Origin: an uncultured Gammaproteobacteria bacterium
Lineage (GTDB): Bacteria; Cyanobacteriota; Vampirovibrionia; LMEP-6097
Length of the DNA stretch: 64,000 nucleotides
Direction: 5' to 3'
NCBI GenBank assembly: GCA_964551135.1
Contig: CAZKAT010000001.1
Span: 148,224-212,223, forward strand
Translations under genes and position numbers: made by a program
The notes under the pieces: generated by a model
Databases searched by the model: none
The model's input: only the letters and a program-made list of their open reading frames with translations
What the model was told of the DNA's origin: nothing
Shown: positions 2,530 to 40,565 of the stretch, one piece after another
Numbering within the stretch: the first letter of the stretch is position 1
Layout of the letters: the number at the start of each line of letters is the position of its first letter

Positions 2530-3369
2530 ATGAAAGCCGTAATTCTAGCAGGTGGACTAGGTACCCGTATATCAGAAGAGACAGAGCTTAAGCCTAAGCC
2601 AATGGTAGAGATAGGCGGCCGGCCGATACTCTGGCATATCATGAAGATTTATTCTAATCATGGTATCAATGAATTTATTATTTGCGCTGGTTACAAAGGT
2701 TACATGATTAAAGAGTTCTTTGCGAACTACTTTATGCATAAATCAGATGTAACATTCGATTTAGCAAATAACAATCTTATTATTCACAATCATCAATGCG
2801 AGCCATGGAAAGTAACTGTAGTGGATACTGGTGAAGATAGCATGACTGGTGGTCGTCTCAAGAAAGTAGCTGCCTATGTTGGCAATGAAGATTTTTGCAT
2901 GACTTATGGTGACGGAGTTTCAGATGTAAATATTACTGAACTAATTAAGTTTCATAAAGCACAAGCTAAGTTAGCTACTCTGACAGCAGTCGCTCCTGCA
3001 GGCAGGTTTGGAGCATTAGAGCTCAGTGGTCATACTATTAATAGTTTCCATGAGAAACCGCAAGGAGATGGTGGCTATATTAATGGTGGATTTTTTGTGC
3101 TCAGTCCGCAAGTACTTAATTATATAGAACATGATCAGACTGTTTGGGAAAGAGAACCTCTTGAGATGCTAGCTAAACAAGGTCAACTGAGTGCCTTTAA
3201 GCATGAGGGATTCTGGCAACCTATGGATACTCTTAGAGACAAGCTTAAGCTTGAGGATATTTGTAAGGAAGGTAATCCACCTTGGTTAAAAAACACTTCA
3301 CGTCAAAAAACTAAAGCAATGTTTATTTCCAAGAATCCAATGGAGATGATTAAAAATAAAACAGTTTAA
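2530..3369 (+). CDS. rfbF: Glucose-1-phosphate cytidylyltransferase
   Basis: [40 protein letters not shown]. Confidence 0.93.
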
Positions 3370-3386
3370 TAAAAAGGGTCTATGTA

Positions 3387-4529
3387 ATGGTAATCAAAAG
3401 TTTTAAGGGTAAGAAAGTATTAGTCACAGGGCATACTGGTTTTAAAGGAACTTGGCTGAGTCTTTGGCTAGTAGAGCTGGGTGCACAAGTTGTAGGTTAC
3501 TCTCTAGAACCTAATTCTAATCCGTCATTATTCAAATCTATAGGTTTGGAAAGAGATATCAAACATTATATTGGTGATATTAGAAATTTTGAGAAGCTAA
3601 ATAAAGTTATTCAAGATGAGAAACCAGAAATAATTTTTCATTTGGCTGCACAAGCCTTAGTAAGAGAGTCTTACAAGAACCCACTTTTAACTTACGAGAC
3701 TAATGTTATGGGTACTGTGAATCTACTAGAAGCAGTACGTCATTGTGATTCAGTTAGAACTGTAATAAATGTTACAACTGATAAATGTTATGAGAATAAA
3801 GAATGGGTTTACGGTTATAGAGAGATAGATCCTCTTGGTGGTTATGATCCATATAGTTCTAGCAAGGCTGCTTCAGAATTGATTACAGCGTCTTACCGCA
3901 ATGCTTACTTTAATCCTAATGACTATGGTACTAAGCATCACGTTGCTCTAGCTTCAGCGCGAGCTGGTAATGTCATCGGTGGTGGTGATTGGGCTGAAGA
4001 TAGGTTAATCCCAGATGCTATTAAAGCTCTCAAGCTTAATCAAGAAATAAATATCCGCAATCCACATGCAACTAGACCTTGGCAACACGTGCTAGAACCG
4101 ATTTCAGGTTACTTGAGCTTAGCGTCTAAGCTTGAAGAAGATCCTAAAGCTTTCTCTGAAGCTTGGAACTTTGGTCCTAGAGAGACTGCTGCGATTAGTG
4201 TTGAAGAAGTAGTTTCTAAGATACTTAAGCTTTGGGGTAGAGGTAAGTATTCAGTAGATGCTGGCGAGCATCCTCACGAAACTAGCTATCTTAAGCTTGA
4301 CTTAAGCAAAACCTCTCAGAGACTTAAGTTCAAGCCGGTACTAGAGATAGATGAAGCATTACAGTTAACAGTACAATGGTATAAAAACTTCTATGAAGTG
4401 AAGACTACTAGTCCGAGAGAATTTACTATTAATCAGATTCGTGAATATCATAAGAAACGCTTTGGTATGTTGTCTAAGGCAATAGATAAGCTGGCTAGAA
4501 CTGTTGGGCAAGTGCAGACTGTAAGTTAG
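3387..4529 (+). CDS. rfbG: CDP-glucose 4,6-dehydratase
   Basis: VTGHTGFKG, TTDKCYEN, DPYSSSK, RAGNVIGGGDW, RPWQHVLEP. Confidence 0.93.
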   Translation: MVIKSFKGKKVLVTGHTGFKGTWLSLWLVELGAQVVGYSLEPNSNPSLFKSIGLERDIKHYIGDIRNFEKLNKVIQDEKPEIIFHLAAQALVRESYKNPLLTYETNVMGTVNLLEAVRHCDSVRTVINVTTDKCYENKEWVYGYREIDPLGGYDPYSSSKAASELITASYRNAYFNPNDYGTKHHVALASARAGNVIGGGDWAEDRLIPDAIKALKLNQEINIRNPHATRPWQHVLEPISGYLSLASKLEEDPKAFSEAWNFGPRETAAISVEEVVSKILKLWGRGKYSVDAGEHPHETSYLKLDLSKTSQRLKFKPVLEIDEALQLTVQWYKNFYEVKTTSPREFTINQIREYHKKRFGMLSKAIDKLARTVGQVQTVS

Positions 4530-4538
4530 TTAATATTT

Positions 4539-5114
4539 CTATCTAATTCTATCTAATGTAATAGTTGCTAGTTGAGGATTGCTGCCTATGAATTGACATA
4601 TATATAGCTCATTGACTTCAATAAATCCATCACCACTCTGGTCAGAGCAATCAGATACAATATCATAAATTCCAGCCCCTTGACCACTATAATTCTTTTT
4701 GGGATCGAGGTTTATAGTGTAATATTGAGATCCAGTGAAAAAGAAGTTTTGAAAGGATAAGACATTTTTTATTAGAATACCTAAGCTATGTCCAATAACG
4801 AAACCAGAGGAATCGCTTAATACAAACTCAATTAGCCCACTATCATTTTTAATTACGGCATCAATAATATCCAAAAATATTGGACTGGATTCGCTTGAAT
4901 CAATTAATCTATAAGTTCCTAATATATTTGTTGATGCTGTTTTGCCACCACCTTTGCGTGCGAGTTTGTCTTTCATGCTAGTTAATTCTTTGGCTTGCTC
5001 GTGGCTTGTAATTATTGGAGTGTTAGCTTGTTTTATATATTGTTTAGTTAGTGATGCATTTGCAAAGTTATTACTAATAAATATTAATGTTAAAACTAAA
5101 ACTACTAATCTCAT
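4539..5114 (-). CDS. Hypothetical exported protein with an EF-hand-like loop
   Basis: N-terminal signal peptide; DQSGDGFIEVNE loop. Confidence 0.6.
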   Translation of the reverse strand: MRLVVLVLTLIFISNNFANASLTKQYIKQANTPIITSHEQAKELTSMKDKLARKGGGKTASTNILGTYRLIDSSESSPIFLDIIDAVIKNDSGLIEFVLSDSSGFVIGHSLGILIKNVLSFQNFFFTGSQYYTINLDPKKNYSGQGAGIYDIVSDCSDQSGDGFIEVNELYICQFIGSNPQLATITLDRIR

Positions 5115-5260
5115 ATGTTTATCTCCAAATATGTTTATTATTTCGACACTATCTTGAATCGAAAATTAAATTATATAAGCTTTTATTTATAGCATTTTTA
5201 TTGATTAAATGTCAAGATCCTGACGCAGAAAAATTGTAAATATTCGAATCTTGCTTCTAT

Positions 5261-5512
5261 ATGAAGCAAATTAGACGAAGCGTGGGTAAATTTCTAAGAA
5301 AGATTAGAGAAGAGAGAAGCATGTCTATAACAGAAGTCTCAGCATATCTTTCTCTTCATAAGATTAAATGTTCTAGAACTAATCTTTCTAGAATTGAATC
5401 AGACAACGCTACTGTTAGACATGACATACTTGCAGGTTTATGTGTTATTTATGGGATTAGTGCAGATGAGGTTTTGTTTAGGAAGGGGAAGAAAGAAGAA
5501 GAAACACTCTGA
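5261..5512 (+). CDS. XRE-family HTH transcriptional regulator
   Basis: LRKIREERSMS...LSRIE...LCVIYGISADEVL pattern. Confidence 0.8.
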   Translation: MKQIRRSVGKFLRKIREERSMSITEVSAYLSLHKIKCSRTNLSRIESDNATVRHDILAGLCVIYGISADEVLFRKGKKEEETL

Positions 5513-5533
5513 ATTAAATTTAATCCCCACCTA

Positions 5534-5563
5534 TTGACATCCTCATACAAAGGTAAGTATAAT
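5534..5563 (+). promoter_or_regulatory. Consensus sigma70 promoter of dinD
   Basis: TTGACA (5534-5539), 18-nt spacer, TATAAT (5558-5563); SD AAGGAGG at 5599-5605. Confidence 0.7.
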
Positions 5564-5612
5564 AATTAACAACATAGAGCAGCAAAATTAATCCAATTAA
5601 GGAGGATTTGTC

Positions 5613-6461
5613 ATGGAAACACAGGTAATTACTAAGCTGCACGCGGATTTTGAGGATCATGCCCATATGCAAGATGGCGTTGAGTTCTGGTATGCAAGAG
5701 AACTTCAAGTCCTACTTGGTTATGATGAATGGAGGAATTTTGAGAAGATTATTGCTAAAGCTAAGCAAGCTTGTAAAGCCTCTAAGCAAGAGCTTTTCGA
5801 TCATTTTGTTGACGTCAACAAAATGATAAAACTGGCTAAGGGAGCGGAACGAACAGTATCAGACTACATGCTTACTCGTTATGCTTGCTACCTGATCGCT
5901 CAAAATGGTGATCCTCATAAGGAAGAAATAGCCTTCGCAATGACTTACTTTGCAGTGCAAACGCGCAAGCAAGAAGTCTTAGAACAGCGTATTAAAGAAT
6001 GGGAGCGTTTACAAGCTAGAGAGAAGCTATCTTTATCGGAGAAAGAACTTTCGGGACTTGTATTTGAACGTGGAGTAGATGGACAAGGATTCGCGAGAAT
6101 TCGTAGTAAGGGTGATGAAGCGCTTTTTGGTGGGCACGATACTCAAGCAATGAAAGAGAAGCTTAATGTTCCCGTGAAGAGATCACTTGCAGATTTTTTA
6201 CCGACAGTCACTATCAAGGCAAAAGATCTTGCTAATGAGATTACTAATTTTAATGTCAAGAAAAATAAATCATTAGAAGGTGAGACATTGATAAGTTCTG
6301 AACATGTTAAGAATAATCAGCATATGCGTGAGATGCTTGGTAAGAGTGGGATACAACCTGAAACACTTCCAGCTGCAGAAGATATTCAGAAGCTTGGAAG
6401 AAAGCTTAAGTCCCAAGACAAGAAGCTTCTTCAAGGATCTAAAAAACTATCAAGCAACTGA
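5613..6461 (+). CDS. dinD: DNA damage-inducible protein D
   Basis: [55 protein letters not shown]. Confidence 0.88.
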
Positions 6462-6531
6462 AATAATCTAAAGCATGCATATTGTTCAATAAAGGAGTTC
6501 CATCCTATGTATATACGCAGGTATTAATTAT

Positions 6532-6855
6532 ATGAAAGTTAAATCAACCCCAAAACCCAAAAAATCTAAACTTCATAAAGATTCATCTCCAGATTTGAGT
6601 AAGCTATGGCTAGAGTGGCATGTGGTTAAGGATGAAAATTCTGATGAAGATTTGTTAAGTTTTGATTTTAAGTTAATAGAGAAACAGCTTAAATCTACAG
6701 AAGATCAGAAGGTGTCTATCCCTATTCTGGCTTTATATCATCTTGCGGAGAAGTATAATTGGTTACAAGTATTGCGAGGTCCGAAGCATAAACCTACCGA
6801 TCCCTATGAGTTGGTGCGCTTTATTCAGATGCTAGAGAGTAATTATTCTGATTAA
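6532..6855 (+). CDS. Hypothetical protein
   Basis: 107-aa ORF filling the gap between dinD and murE; no motif recognised. Confidence 0.5.
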   Translation: MKVKSTPKPKKSKLHKDSSPDLSKLWLEWHVVKDENSDEDLLSFDFKLIEKQLKSTEDQKVSIPILALYHLAEKYNWLQVLRGPKHKPTDPYELVRFIQMLESNYSD

Positions 6856-14848: not shown

Positions 14849-14975
14849 GTTGATTGTCTCGTATATCTTGAGGTTTACGTGGACCAAAGAAGAACATTAA
14901 ATAAAAACCTACTGCCAATAAGATGCCTAATACAACTAGAGCTTTAAATGTTTCATTTTCTATGAATGCTTCCAT
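14808..14975 (-). CDS. Small single-TM protein (55 aa), absent from the ORF track
   Basis: My translation: [37 protein letters not shown]...; AGAGGA SD upstream; overlaps the end of ORF 14953-15201 and 41 nt of glyQ. Confidence 0.4.
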
Positions 14976-15201
14976 TAATCCTCTCCTCTTCGTCTAATAA
15001 AACATTATAACTTACATCAATCAAATAGTTAGCAATTGCTAAGAATACTAAAGCTGCTACTAGTCTGATCAAGAAGGCCTTATTAAAAGTGAATTCCATT
15101 AGATAAATATTCATAAGAAATGCTCCACTAAATGCAGCGCAAGCATAACCTAAGCTTCTGTAAACTTCTGCTCTATGAATTTCAGATTTTCGATAATCCA
15201 T
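14953..15201 (-). CDS. Small two-TM hypothetical protein
   Basis: 82-aa ORF with two hydrophobic helices. Confidence 0.55.
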   Translation of the reverse strand: MDYRKSEIHRAEVYRSLGYACAAFSGAFLMNIYLMEFTFNKAFLIRLVAALVFLAIANYLIDVSYNVLLDEEERINGSIHRK

Positions 15202-15232
15202 AATGATGAAAATTTTTATAAATCCTATTCAC

Positions 15233-15353
15233 AAATGAAAGGGGTCAAAAGTCACCTGAAATTTTTTGGATTTGTTTGTAAAGACAAAGGTTTTGAAAAA
15301 CTGACTTTAATAACGAGTGGCTCAAGGGGGTCAAAAGTCCTTTCTAGGTTAAG
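15233..15353. repeat. Paired-GGGGTCAAAA element, copy A
   Basis: AAATGAAAGGGGTCAAAA...TCAAGGGGGTCAAAA...GGTTAAG, also found at 39094-39228. Confidence 0.8.
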
Positions 15354-38519: not shown

Positions 38520-39044
38520 CTAGACTAAATAGTGTGTGCCGTTGGCATATATCAATTCTCTTTCTTCTGCCTCAAATCTAGTGATCTCGTAGTCGTGTCG
38601 GAATTGTCGTAGATCAACTATATTATCCTGTGGTCGGTGAGGCTCGTCTATGTCTAGCCCTGGAAAATCTTCTTCTTCATCTTCATTATCATCGTCCCAA
38701 TCTTCGATAAGCTCGATATCATTCCAAGTATTGAGCTTCGGTTGCTCTCTTAATCTTAAGAATGCTTGATAGCCATCCAGCATATCTCGTCCAAAAATTA
38801 CTAATCTTCTTTCAGTTAATCTCTCGTCGGTTATAGAAGCAACTAAATCTCTAATTTTACGAATAAATCCTTCAATGGTTCTAATAGAAAACCCTAGCTC
38901 ATCCCCAATCTCTATATTGCTCCAGCCCTCACCAATGAGAGCTAATATTGGTATATAGGGTTCGGGTATTATTGTTCCCTTATATCTCACTACTGGTAGA
39001 ATTGCTACTTTCTCTAAATCTAGTCTCTGTGCTGTTTTCGGCAT
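38520..39044 (-). CDS. Solo LuxR-type HTH protein with an acidic tail
   Basis: ILALIGEGWSNIEIGDELGFSIRTIEGFIRKI; DDDNEDEEED; GGAGG SD. Confidence 0.7.
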   Translation of the reverse strand: MPKTAQRLDLEKVAILPVVRYKGTIIPEPYIPILALIGEGWSNIEIGDELGFSIRTIEGFIRKIRDLVASITDERLTERRLVIFGRDMLDGYQAFLRLREQPKLNTWNDIELIEDWDDDNEDEEEDFPGLDIDEPHRPQDNIVDLRQFRHDYEITRFEAEERELIYANGTHYLV

Positions 39045-39093
39045 TATTAATTCCTCCGTTCTTGTGCCATTAATAATAAATCTAAAGTTCCCG

Positions 39094-39228
39094 AAATGAA
39101 AGGGGTCAAAAAACCCCTGGAACTTTTTGTTTCTAATCCAATTGTTATAAGGGTTTGAGTGATTTTGCTGTTAAAAACTATGTTCTGGAAAACTGTTCAA
39201 GGGGGTCAAAAAACCCCTGGAGGTTAAG
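39094..39228. repeat. Paired-GGGGTCAAAA element, copy B
   Basis: GGGGTCAAAAAACCCCTGGA at 39102-39121 and 39202-39221, an exact 100-bp period. Confidence 0.85.
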
Positions 39229-39235
39229 AAGGATT

Positions 39236-39802
39236 TTAAACAATCAGTTGATTTTGACCCCAAGCTAGCTTCTTGTTTGCGATATCACGCATCAATGTTA
39301 CTAACTTACCTGCTGGTGATTCTTTACTAATCACTAATGGTTTACTTTCATGCCCAGGTTTATTCCTATACGTTAGAGTATAATTTGGTCCCCCAGTCAG
39401 ACTATTTTTAATAGTAATAAAAAATCGTTTTTTGCCTTCATCAGTAATATCTTCATAACTAAAATGAACATCAGGATCACCTTGTTGATGCTGAACATTA
39501 TTAAAATTCAATAATTGAGCTGCTCTTTTAACTAATACTGATTCGTCTTGCCAGGCTGCTTCTCTATCTGTCAAACTTAAAGGATCCACCTCGTGGTTCA
39601 TACGTTCTAAAGGAATAACTATGTCTTTTATTTGCTCTCTTTCGAAGAGCTTGGTTAAAATAGCATCTCGTTCAGCAAGGTTTGCTTCAATGTCCTTACC
39701 TACTTTTACGACACTAGTAGCCAATGCATTACATGCATCAGGATTTGTAATTCTTAAAAAAGGGATTAATTTTGCGATATTACCAAAAGTTGTTGTCAGC
39801 AT
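39236..39802 (-). CDS. Hypothetical protein
   Basis: 188-aa ORF starting 5 nt after the duplicated def stop codon. Confidence 0.6.
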   Translation of the reverse strand: MLTTTFGNIAKLIPFLRITNPDACNALATSVVKVGKDIEANLAERDAILTKLFEREQIKDIVIPLERMNHEVDPLSLTDREAAWQDESVLVKRAAQLLNFNNVQHQQGDPDVHFSYEDITDEGKKRFFITIKNSLTGGPNYTLTYRNKPGHESKPLVISKESPAGKLVTLMRDIANKKLAWGQNQLIV

Positions 39803-39863: not shown

Positions 39864-40565
39864 CTATGTTTGTGCATTTAAGGCAGATTCAATAGCAAGT
39901 TTAGTCAAAACCTTAGAATGTTTAATGAGTTCATTCAAAAATTCAAGGGCATTTTCTACAACCTCAATTTTCATAGGGTCAACTCGACTTATATCTGGAA
40001 AATATCTTCGGATTCTTGTAGAGTTCATGTTTAACTCTCCACTTTCAGTGACAGCTAATTTAGAATGGACTTCAGTTTTGAGAAAATGGTTAAATTTCTC
40101 TAGTGAAAAGTCCCTATAATTTAAAAACTTGGCTAATAAATTTTTTAATCCTTGGATTTTTAAACCAGTTATTTCTGCAAGGTTATTTAAAGCTTTTATA
40201 GTAGGATTGTCTTCATTAATTCTAGTAATTGTAAAACAGAATCCAATTGGTTTAGATTCTGTGATCGTAATTCCTTTTCCTTTTAAAAAATGAGCAAGCC
40301 CATCTAATGCTTGTGAATAATCAGAAGAAGATGAAAGACGACGGGTTTTGGGTGAATGTGCTGCATGTAAATCTTCTTTCATAGCAGGAATTCTACTTTC
40401 AATAGTTGCATCAATTACAGGAGCAACTTTTAAAAGCAGATCAAAAGCAACTCGTTGTATATCATGTTCAGCTCTATTAGGTGAGCTAATTAAAGCATCT
40501 CGTTTCTGTTGCAATGCTTGTACGATTGTTGTCATTATAGAAGTCCTTTTAGGCTTATAAGCCAT
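39864..40565 (-). CDS. Hypothetical protein between the two def 3' ends
   Basis: 233-aa AT-rich ORF; no motif recognised. Confidence 0.6.
   Translation of the reverse strand: MAYKPKRTSIMTTIVQALQQKRDALISSPNRAEHDIQRVAFDLLLKVAPVIDATIESRIPAMKEDLHAAHSPKTRRLSSSSDYSQALDGLAHFLKGKGITITESKPIGFCFTITRINEDNPTIKALNNLAEITGLKIQGLKNLLAKFLNYRDFSLEKFNHFLKTEVHSKLAVTESGELNMNSTRIRRYFPDISRVDPMKIEVVENALEFLNELIKHSKVLTKLAIESALNAQT

Follow-up and report, generated by a model that had tools for sequence, protein, structure and literature searches.

The box recognized by LuxR and TraR is 18-20 bp long and is centered at about -42 to -45. MalT of E. coli, a 901-aa STAND ATPase with a LuxR-type DNA-binding domain, reads asymmetric G-rich sites, one beside the -35 element and others upstream, and acts in a higher-order complex. 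PedR is under redox control through thioredoxin. This small solo LuxR-type regulator of Synechocystis (Ssl0564) has a regulon of 8 genes (PMC4361706). The present work concerns a stretch of 64,000 nucleotides from an uncultured bacterium (contig CAZKAT010000001.1; the whole stretch is referred to as the window) which carries two copies of a module of about 150 bp, each built around a distal and a proximal box. One of them, copy B, stands directly upstream of a gene for a 174-aa LuxR/GerE-type protein (38520..39044, minus strand), hereafter the regulator gene. We read the boxes as two operator sites, one upstream and one promoter-proximal, within a rigid promoter module (~150 bp) that defines a lineage-specific regulon, probably activated and autoregulated by the 174-aa protein, an interpretation that we consider moderately probable.

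The architecture of the module is apparent from 21 non-redundant copies aligned in gene sense. After a distal box come some 37 nt that are free in sequence, then a middle motif (AAAACCCTTAT..GGGTT), an A-rich run, the proximal box, any 15 nucleotides (N15), a -10-like hexamer and the ATG. The distal box, with the consensus cTTAACCTCYAGRGGTTAAATGACCCCCTTGA, is kept in 19 of the 21 modules even though the search pattern left it out. Of the 20 modules in which the distance between the boxes was measured, 12 have 98 bp and 18 fall within 97-100 bp, while copy A at 15.2 kb of the window and its orthologue (L005) share a spacing of 86 bp. The 100 bp stressed in the earlier note, made by a model from the letters of the window, is thus correct for copy B and slightly off the typical value. 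Identity within the spacer is 0.46 against 0.30 for shuffled sequence; the excess is concentrated in the 3′ half and the first 37 nt are near-random. Since the length of the spacer is kept and its 5′ half is free in sequence, the distal box is best read as a helper site for which distance matters.

In the window, the 20-mer GGGGTCAAAAAACCCCTGGA has two exact copies on the plus strand (39102-39121 and 39202-39221), where 100 shuffles gave an expectation of 0, and no further match with up to three mismatches occurs in the 64 kb. The two are direct repeats, 100 bp from start to start, that extend to 23 nt with one mismatch, and each contains the dyad GGGGT-N6-ACCCC; on the spacing and the dyad the earlier note was accurate. 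They lie between the stop codon (39236) of a 188-aa open reading frame (ORF) and the start codon of the 174-aa ORF. The proximal box of copy B (39094..39123, minus strand; gene-sense TTCCAGGGGTTTTTTGACCCCTTTCATTT) includes the first 20-mer, and the distal box (39197..39228, minus strand; gene-sense CTTAACCTCCAGGGGTTTTTTGACCCCCTTGA), 100 bp upstream of it, includes the second. Between them, the module alignment and the conservation of the spacer columns place the semi-conserved middle motif at 39135..39159 (minus strand; family consensus AAAACCCTTATAAACA..GGGTT), some 45-50 bp upstream of the proximal TGACCCC. The -10-like hexamer TATTAT, read from the sequence, stands at 39073..39078 (minus strand), exactly 15 nt past TTTCATTT. 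Transcription of the regulator gene is predicted to start near 39065-39067, and from this predicted start the leader would be ~22 nt long, with a Shine-Dalgarno sequence GGAGGAA at 39051-39057; leaders reach up to ~120 nt in relatives.

The perfect palindrome, to which the earlier note drew attention, is peculiar to this copy. Among 22 proximal boxes scored for pairing, the full dyad is found in copy B only. The conserved signal is instead an asymmetric block, CAGRGG-WYTTT-TGACCCC-TTTCATTT (also written CAGRGG-WYTTT-TGACCCCTTTCATTT), in which the right half TGACCCC(Y)TT(S)A is invariant and the left arm varies (AGAGGT, AGGTGA, AGGGGA). This pattern speaks to the idea that the boxes are hairpins acting as intrinsic terminators, insulators or leader RNA structures. 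The proximal box of the window does look like a terminator on the minus strand, with AGGGGTTTTTTGACCCCT followed by TTCATTT and an RNA fold of -10.3 kcal/mol. In the other copies, the changes in the left arm are not compensated in the right one, so that all six pairs form in just 1 of the 22 boxes; most copies fold at a mere -2.5 to -3.4 kcal/mol and there is no corresponding Rfam family, a search of the whole window giving zero matches. Because the hairpin is incompletely paired elsewhere and the folds are weak, the terminator-like score of the window copy is incidental, and a role as hairpins is highly improbable.

The -10-like hexamer is present at N15 in nearly all 21 modules, in the forms CATAAT, TAAAAC, TATTAT, GAGAAT and similar, and no usable -35 hexamer lies 16-18 nt upstream of it. 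No comparable -10 hexamer accompanies the distal box in the module alignments. The ATG follows 27-31 nt past TTTCATTT in 13 loci, i.e., 6-9 nt past the hexamer, because of which the target mRNAs are probably mostly leaderless. If transcription starts 7 nt past the hexamer, the proximal box covers about -53 to -29 and its dyad is centered at about -44. Class-II activator sites, such as the lux box of LuxR and TraR, are centered at about -41 to -45 and overlap the -35 region. The geometry of the module, as read from the alignments, fits that of a class-II activator-dependent promoter.

The regulator gene keeps the module over a considerable evolutionary distance. Its five closest homologues share 62-76% identity at the protein level, and the orthologous genes always adjoin argS and, on contigs that extend to def, also follow that gene (L001, L002). 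Both boxes are upstream of the gene in all four loci fetched in the 62-70% identity range (L001, L002, L003, L004). Three orthologues with 36-39% identity (P0007, P0008 and P0013 at loci L059, L061 and L063) retain the argS neighbor and a canonical proximal box, CAGAGG..TGACCCCTTTCAT; of these loci, only L061 is on a contig long enough to show def, and it also has upstream copies of the box. Two more distant orthologues, P0010 and P0012 (L062 and L064), have diverged boxes, TTTTGACCTCTTTTTAAT and TTTTGACCACTTACAAAA, at the same distance to the -10-like hexamer. Of all the loci with a module, only that of the regulator gene has retained the box in each of the lineages sampled, and the expectation that motif and gene are conserved together in relatives holds for the sampled loci down to 36-39% identity.

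These data also bear on the proposal that the module is a dispersed repeat or mobile element (miniature inverted-repeat transposable element, repetitive extragenic palindromic sequence or Correia-like) with an outward promoter, whose copies reflect spread and not regulation. Such an origin would account for the many copies per genome, for a similarity that is recognizable even in the 3′ half of the spacer and for the unrelated genes behind the module (comM, a lipoprotein gene, a VirB4-like operon and the regulator gene). It is difficult to reconcile with the orientation of the copies, every one of which faces the downstream ORF; nearly all 21 modules precede a protein-coding ORF, mostly at a fixed distance, with hexamer and ATG at set positions outside the conserved block, and among the modules found no copy was observed within a gene or in the space between two convergent ones. 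The two boxes repeat in the same orientation and do not form terminal inverted repeats. Finally, the module is held at the orthologous argS-adjacent site across lineages at 36-39% protein identity, which points to vertical retention. Spread as a mobile element is therefore very unlikely.

The number of copies exceeds what the earlier note envisaged. The 18-mer TTTTGACCCCTTTCATTT of the proximal box, scanned over 185,579 species genomes, is found 11 times in the metagenome-assembled genome (MAG) of a relative (CAZELI01), three times in JAPPOW01 and twice in CAYPGT01; the single copies in other genomes are chance matches, apart from three sites (L022, L027, L030) that are partial or may be related. 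A search with the whole-module profile adds a twelfth, divergent module (L020) to CAZELI01, bringing it to at least 12. In the source metagenome, contig depth at the two boxes sums to 346 and 426 in run X1, with ~35 in the flanks, and to 89 and 153 in run X5, with 34 in the flanks. The rise of about 10-fold is located exactly at the two boxes, and several contigs carry a different 75-nt filler between them, so further modules must be present in the same population. An autoregulated mini-regulon had been proposed for copy B: a cis element upstream of both regulator orthologues and other genes agrees with a regulon, in which the 174-aa protein would be the binder, but with at least 12 modules in one MAG and a box depth ~10x that of the flanks it is not a small one.

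The metagenomic contigs are equally informative on a second suggestion of the earlier note, namely that the element is an orphan leader of clustered regularly interspaced short palindromic repeats (CRISPR), or a site of site-specific recombination between direct repeats. Two direct 23-nt repeats 100 bp apart are indeed what recombination might act upon. As the same note had remarked, no repeat array follows copy A or copy B in the window; none stands behind any other module copy either, and Rfam detects no CRISPR repeat family in the window. In the contigs of four DNA runs, which drop rare variants and so leave room for rare events, no form with the filler deleted or inverted is found, and the joints that do occur are paralogous modules with other 75 letters between the boxes. 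Both versions of this explanation are extremely improbable.

The product of the regulator gene consists of an N-terminal beta-hairpin, a four-helix DNA-binding core, an acidic linker and a conserved C-terminal beta segment. Its own match to the Pfam GerE family (PF00196) is sub-threshold (18.2 bits, E 0.002, cut-off 23.5), whereas the distant orthologues P0007, P0008, P0012 and P0013 have precomputed GerE matches without a weak mark. The family profile matches NarL/FixJ-type DNA-binding domains in the PDB, including SsrB, VraR and ComA. An AlphaFold2 (AF2) model built on a 34-sequence family alignment has a predicted local distance difference test (pLDDT) score >90 over the core (residues 20-100), with helices at 30-38, 43-50, 54-72 and 78-100. 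It shows the four-helix fold with the helix-turn-helix (HTH) formed by helices 2 and 3, and its best Foldseek matches are NarL bound to DNA (1je8), ComA (3ulq), DosR (1zlj) and LiaR (4wt0), with template-modeling scores by target of 0.74-0.86 and root-mean-square deviations of 1.4-2.2 Å. The superposition on these domains bears out the LuxR-type HTH gene recognized downstream of the boxes, although its own Pfam match is sub-threshold. A receiver domain with a phospho-acceptor Asp is absent by sequence and from the AF2 model of the 174-aa protein, and the autoinducer-binding domain (PF03472) finds no Pfam or NCBIfam match; the HTH starts at about residue 28 and is preceded by the beta-hairpin alone. 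That the protein has neither a receiver nor a ligand domain had been correctly predicted. The acidic tail described at the same time is not a tail: the stretch at about residues 115-133 is an internal linker, followed by the conserved segment ...YEIT.FEAEERELIY.NGTHYLV.

The family comprises 27 representatives at E <= 1e-10. Its signature after the beta-hairpin is an HTH of the form ..IL.LIGEG.SN.EIA..L..S.RTVE.HI..IR; next come a long helix (DR.LVLFAKEMLDGY) and the acidic IEDWD linker, to which the longer members add a C-terminal YEI.DF...E..i.y.dGkYYLV. R55, T56 and E58, located in the recognition helix, are nearly invariant. The best matches among curated models, all of them far below the cut-off, are to cyanobacterial PedR, MalT and NarL-type regulators. 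The 174-aa protein is a member of an uncharacterised subfamily of solo LuxR-type regulators that is new in this uncultured lineage of freshwater and drinking water. Beyond the family proper, the HTH part of the profile is matched in 5-12 separate stretches each by six giant proteins of 2,800-6,600 aa (P0011, P0014, P0033, P0034, P0043 and P0058), which are long arrays of GerE-like repeats. A protein of 110 aa, P0009 (L067 88-420), has the acidic linker and the C-terminal YEITNFEAEERELIYSNGTHYLV segment on an unrelated N-terminus. It adjoins a large gene on the opposite strand where other loci have argS, on a contig of 1.8 kb with 2.5x coverage; either this poorly covered contig is a chimera, or the C-terminal segment can occur as a module of its own.

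From the architecture of the module we infer where transcription starts, that it is activated, that the two boxes cooperate and which protein binds them. The proximal box would take the place of the missing -35 element, at the position of a class-II activator site. RNA polymerase holoenzyme would use the -10 element and be recruited by the protein bound to the box, while a second copy of that protein on the distal box, 98 bp upstream, probably stabilizes the complex. A factor reading the middle motif may help the complex on the distal box. The exact distance of N15 argues for direct contact with RNA polymerase and hence makes activation considerably more probable than repression. The 174-aa protein is the most likely binder, and it would then be autoregulated, since its own gene lies directly downstream. 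It is the best candidate because its gene alone keeps the box in every lineage sampled, because R55, T56 and E58 are nearly invariant, like the box, and because, as the example of MalT shows, asymmetric G-rich sites at positions of this kind are within the reach of LuxR-type domains. Provided that the module is regulatory, we regard binding of the box by this protein as fairly probable.

A serious rival holds that the promoters of the regulon are read by another factor and that the LuxR-type gene is a mere member of the regulon. This factor could be a CRP/FNR-type dimer on GGGGT-N6-ACCCC, since a 5-N6-5 dyad is the geometry of CRP-type sites, or an alternative sigma factor with GACCCCTTTCAT as its -35 element. 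In its favor, the strict 15 nt to the -10 hexamer are typical of sigma -35/-10 spacing, and the box is nearly invariant while the LuxR-type protein drops to 36-39% identity. Sigma recognition alone fails to explain the distal box, because the latter is without a -10 hexamer at the matching distance, and the -10 hexamers of the module resemble ordinary housekeeping TATAAT variants. The LuxR-type gene is the only one to keep the box across all sampled lineages, the usual signature of autoregulation, and no second candidate regulator was seen near any module. On these grounds control by another factor is rated unlikely.

Several observations weigh against activation and autoregulation by the 174-aa protein. 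The conservation of the box is far above that of the protein, as might equally be expected if a highly conserved component, for instance a sigma factor, recognized it, and a regulon promoter on a gene need not make its product the regulator; another factor could be. GerE-type proteins usually bind inverted repeats as dimers, and the box is asymmetric, with a variable left and an invariant right arm. A distance of 98 bp corresponds to ~9.3 helical turns, so looping with both sites on the same face is not obviously favored. Moreover, the locus was found in none of the RNA-seq runs searched. A more far-reaching version would make the 174-aa protein a lineage-wide accessory of promoter recognition, a free HTH resembling sigma region 4 that replaces -35 recognition at a dedicated promoter class. 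Its conserved acidic linker and C-terminal beta segment would serve for docking on RNA polymerase or for bridging the boxes, the host would otherwise rely on extended -10 elements and leaderless mRNAs, and the regulon, with its many fast-evolving small membrane proteins, the VirB4-type secretion operon and comM, would be a coordinated cell-contact or DNA-transfer program. This version is improbable.

Most modules precede genes for proteins of 65-88 aa with two membrane helices, several of which are without a Pfam family and have a common N-terminal pattern, ..RAE.FR.LG.....PF... Modules also stand in front of comM, a lipoprotein gene that precedes uppS-alr, and the regulator gene. In relatives, one module (L051 ~2585-6840, minus strand; L036) heads an operon for membrane proteins of 78 aa and 64 aa, a 192-aa membrane protein and a 911-aa AAA_10/TraG-P-loop (VirB4-like) ATPase. 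The layout of this operon resembles virB2-virB3-virB4 of type IV secretion. The many small two-helix proteins found behind the modules may be paralogues of a pilin-like kind. The small membrane proteins, the operon resembling type IV secretion and comM together point to a coordinated function in the envelope or in DNA transfer. The module gives an uncultured lineage its first defined regulon, with a 28-nt promoter element, a candidate dedicated regulator and a list of targets, and its fixed geometry (N15, 98 bp) makes clear predictions. The regulon is new; the principle of gene control is not.

Copy A, the degenerate homolog that had been noticed at 15.2 kb, is a genuine second module with boxes at 15241 and 15327. 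Its proximal box (15233..15261, minus strand; TTTCAGGTGACTTTTGACCCCTTTCATTT) is followed by N15 and AAAAAT at 15212-15217, and its distal box (15322..15353, minus strand; CTTAACCTAGAAAGGACTTTTGACCCCCTTGA) lies 86 bp upstream. With the module profile, nhmmer detects copy A at E 1.8e-26. The gene behind it (14953..15201, minus strand) encodes an 82-aa two-helix membrane protein of the same small-protein family, without a Pfam family and with 3 orthologues in a collection of 5.8 billion proteins. The four boxes of copies A and B are the total for the window, from which the whole-module profile likewise returns exactly two modules.

In the window, two ORFs without a Pfam family are situated between def and the module, of 188 aa (39236-39802, minus strand) and 233 aa (39864-40565, minus strand). 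In relatives the distal box comes directly after def. The 188-aa ORF is missing from a contig of a co-occurring relative, on which 39229/39230 is connected to 39808/39812. From such comparisons the two ORFs look like lineage-specific insertions into the def-regulator spacer, with the module having stayed with the regulator gene. At L061, a Fic-domain gene (3601-4491) is inserted between def and the regulator gene, whose promoter region has three boxes (~4600, 4752 and 4855). Insertion into the def-regulator spacer seems to have recurred. The 10-nt box core has an exact inverted copy, TTTTGACCCC, at 39252..39261 (plus strand) in the stop-proximal codons at the 3′ end of the 188-aa ORF, 40-50 nt upstream of the distal box; a rough estimate from the sequence puts its chance expectation at ~4e-4. 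This inverted third half-site, absent from the earlier note, may be left over from the insertion or may act as a third site. The RNA stem that it could form with the distal box does not exceed shuffled sequence in stability (z = -0.5).

Other signals in and near the boxes were considered and rejected. An antisense micro-ORF that starts in the box (MKGVK...) has lengths of 5-46 aa and no conservation beyond the box. As a promoter of its own, the distal box offers CCCTTGAA, which resembles a sigma-32 -35 element, and TTGAGC, which resembles that of sigma-70, but no conserved CCCCAT or TATAAT-like -10 element follows at 13-18 nt. Taking TTGACC in the box as a -35 element leaves a 25-nt spacer to the conserved hexamer and no consistent hexamer at 17 nt. 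A sigma-54 reading of TGGCAC (39063-39068) fails because the motif is unconserved in the orthologues. A metagenome scan with a 19-mer of the distal box gave a single match, a tandem array with a period of ~145 bp on JGI contig Ga0105211_1000132 (L066 4600-5171). Each unit of the array has a degenerate GGGTTAAATGACCCCCTTGACCAATA-like stretch, and kinship to the module may or may not exist.

The taxonomic labels of the relatives conflict, with 'uncultured Gammaproteobacteria' on the third-party annotation MAGs and 'Candidatus Melainabacteria' on JAPPOW01. The ArgRS of the window is closest to PDB 3fnr, which we take to be the Campylobacter enzyme, far above other bacterial ArgRS entries. Its S12 does not lie closer to PDB entries presumably from E. 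coli than to others presumably from Thermus. The gammaproteobacterial label of the window genome is doubtful.

Among known systems, class-II activation by LuxR and TraR is similar to the mechanism proposed for the module in that a GerE-type HTH sits on a dyad-like site of 18-20 bp that replaces the -35 element and the regulator gene is under the same control. In contrast to LuxR and TraR, the 174-aa protein has no autoinducer-binding domain and its site is strongly asymmetric. The present unit adds a second site at a fixed 98 bp and a middle motif, and its targets are mostly small-protein genes predicted to be leaderless. MalT also figures among the NCBIfam matches below threshold for the orthologue P0007, but the sequence of the box differs and no CRP-type partner is known for the module. 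PedR is, like the 174-aa protein, a small LuxR-type regulator without a receiver or ligand domain, and it is the best NCBIfam model for the orthologues P0007 and P0013 (E 8e-8 and 8e-9; 32-36 bits, cut-off 120). The window protein has no match to this model (NF052366, cut-off 120 bits), for which distant orthologues score 24.6-35.6 bits, and neither the long fourth helix nor the acidic IEDWD linker nor the C-terminal YEIT..GxYYLV segment is present in PedR. The DNA-binding domains of GerE (Bacillus subtilis), NarL, DosR, ComA and LiaR have the four-helix fold in common with the 174-aa protein, and GerE is also a stand-alone HTH protein. Compared with all of them, the 174-aa protein adds an N-terminal beta-hairpin, a fourth helix of 23 residues (LVIFGRDMLDGY...), a disordered acidic linker and a conserved C-terminal beta segment.

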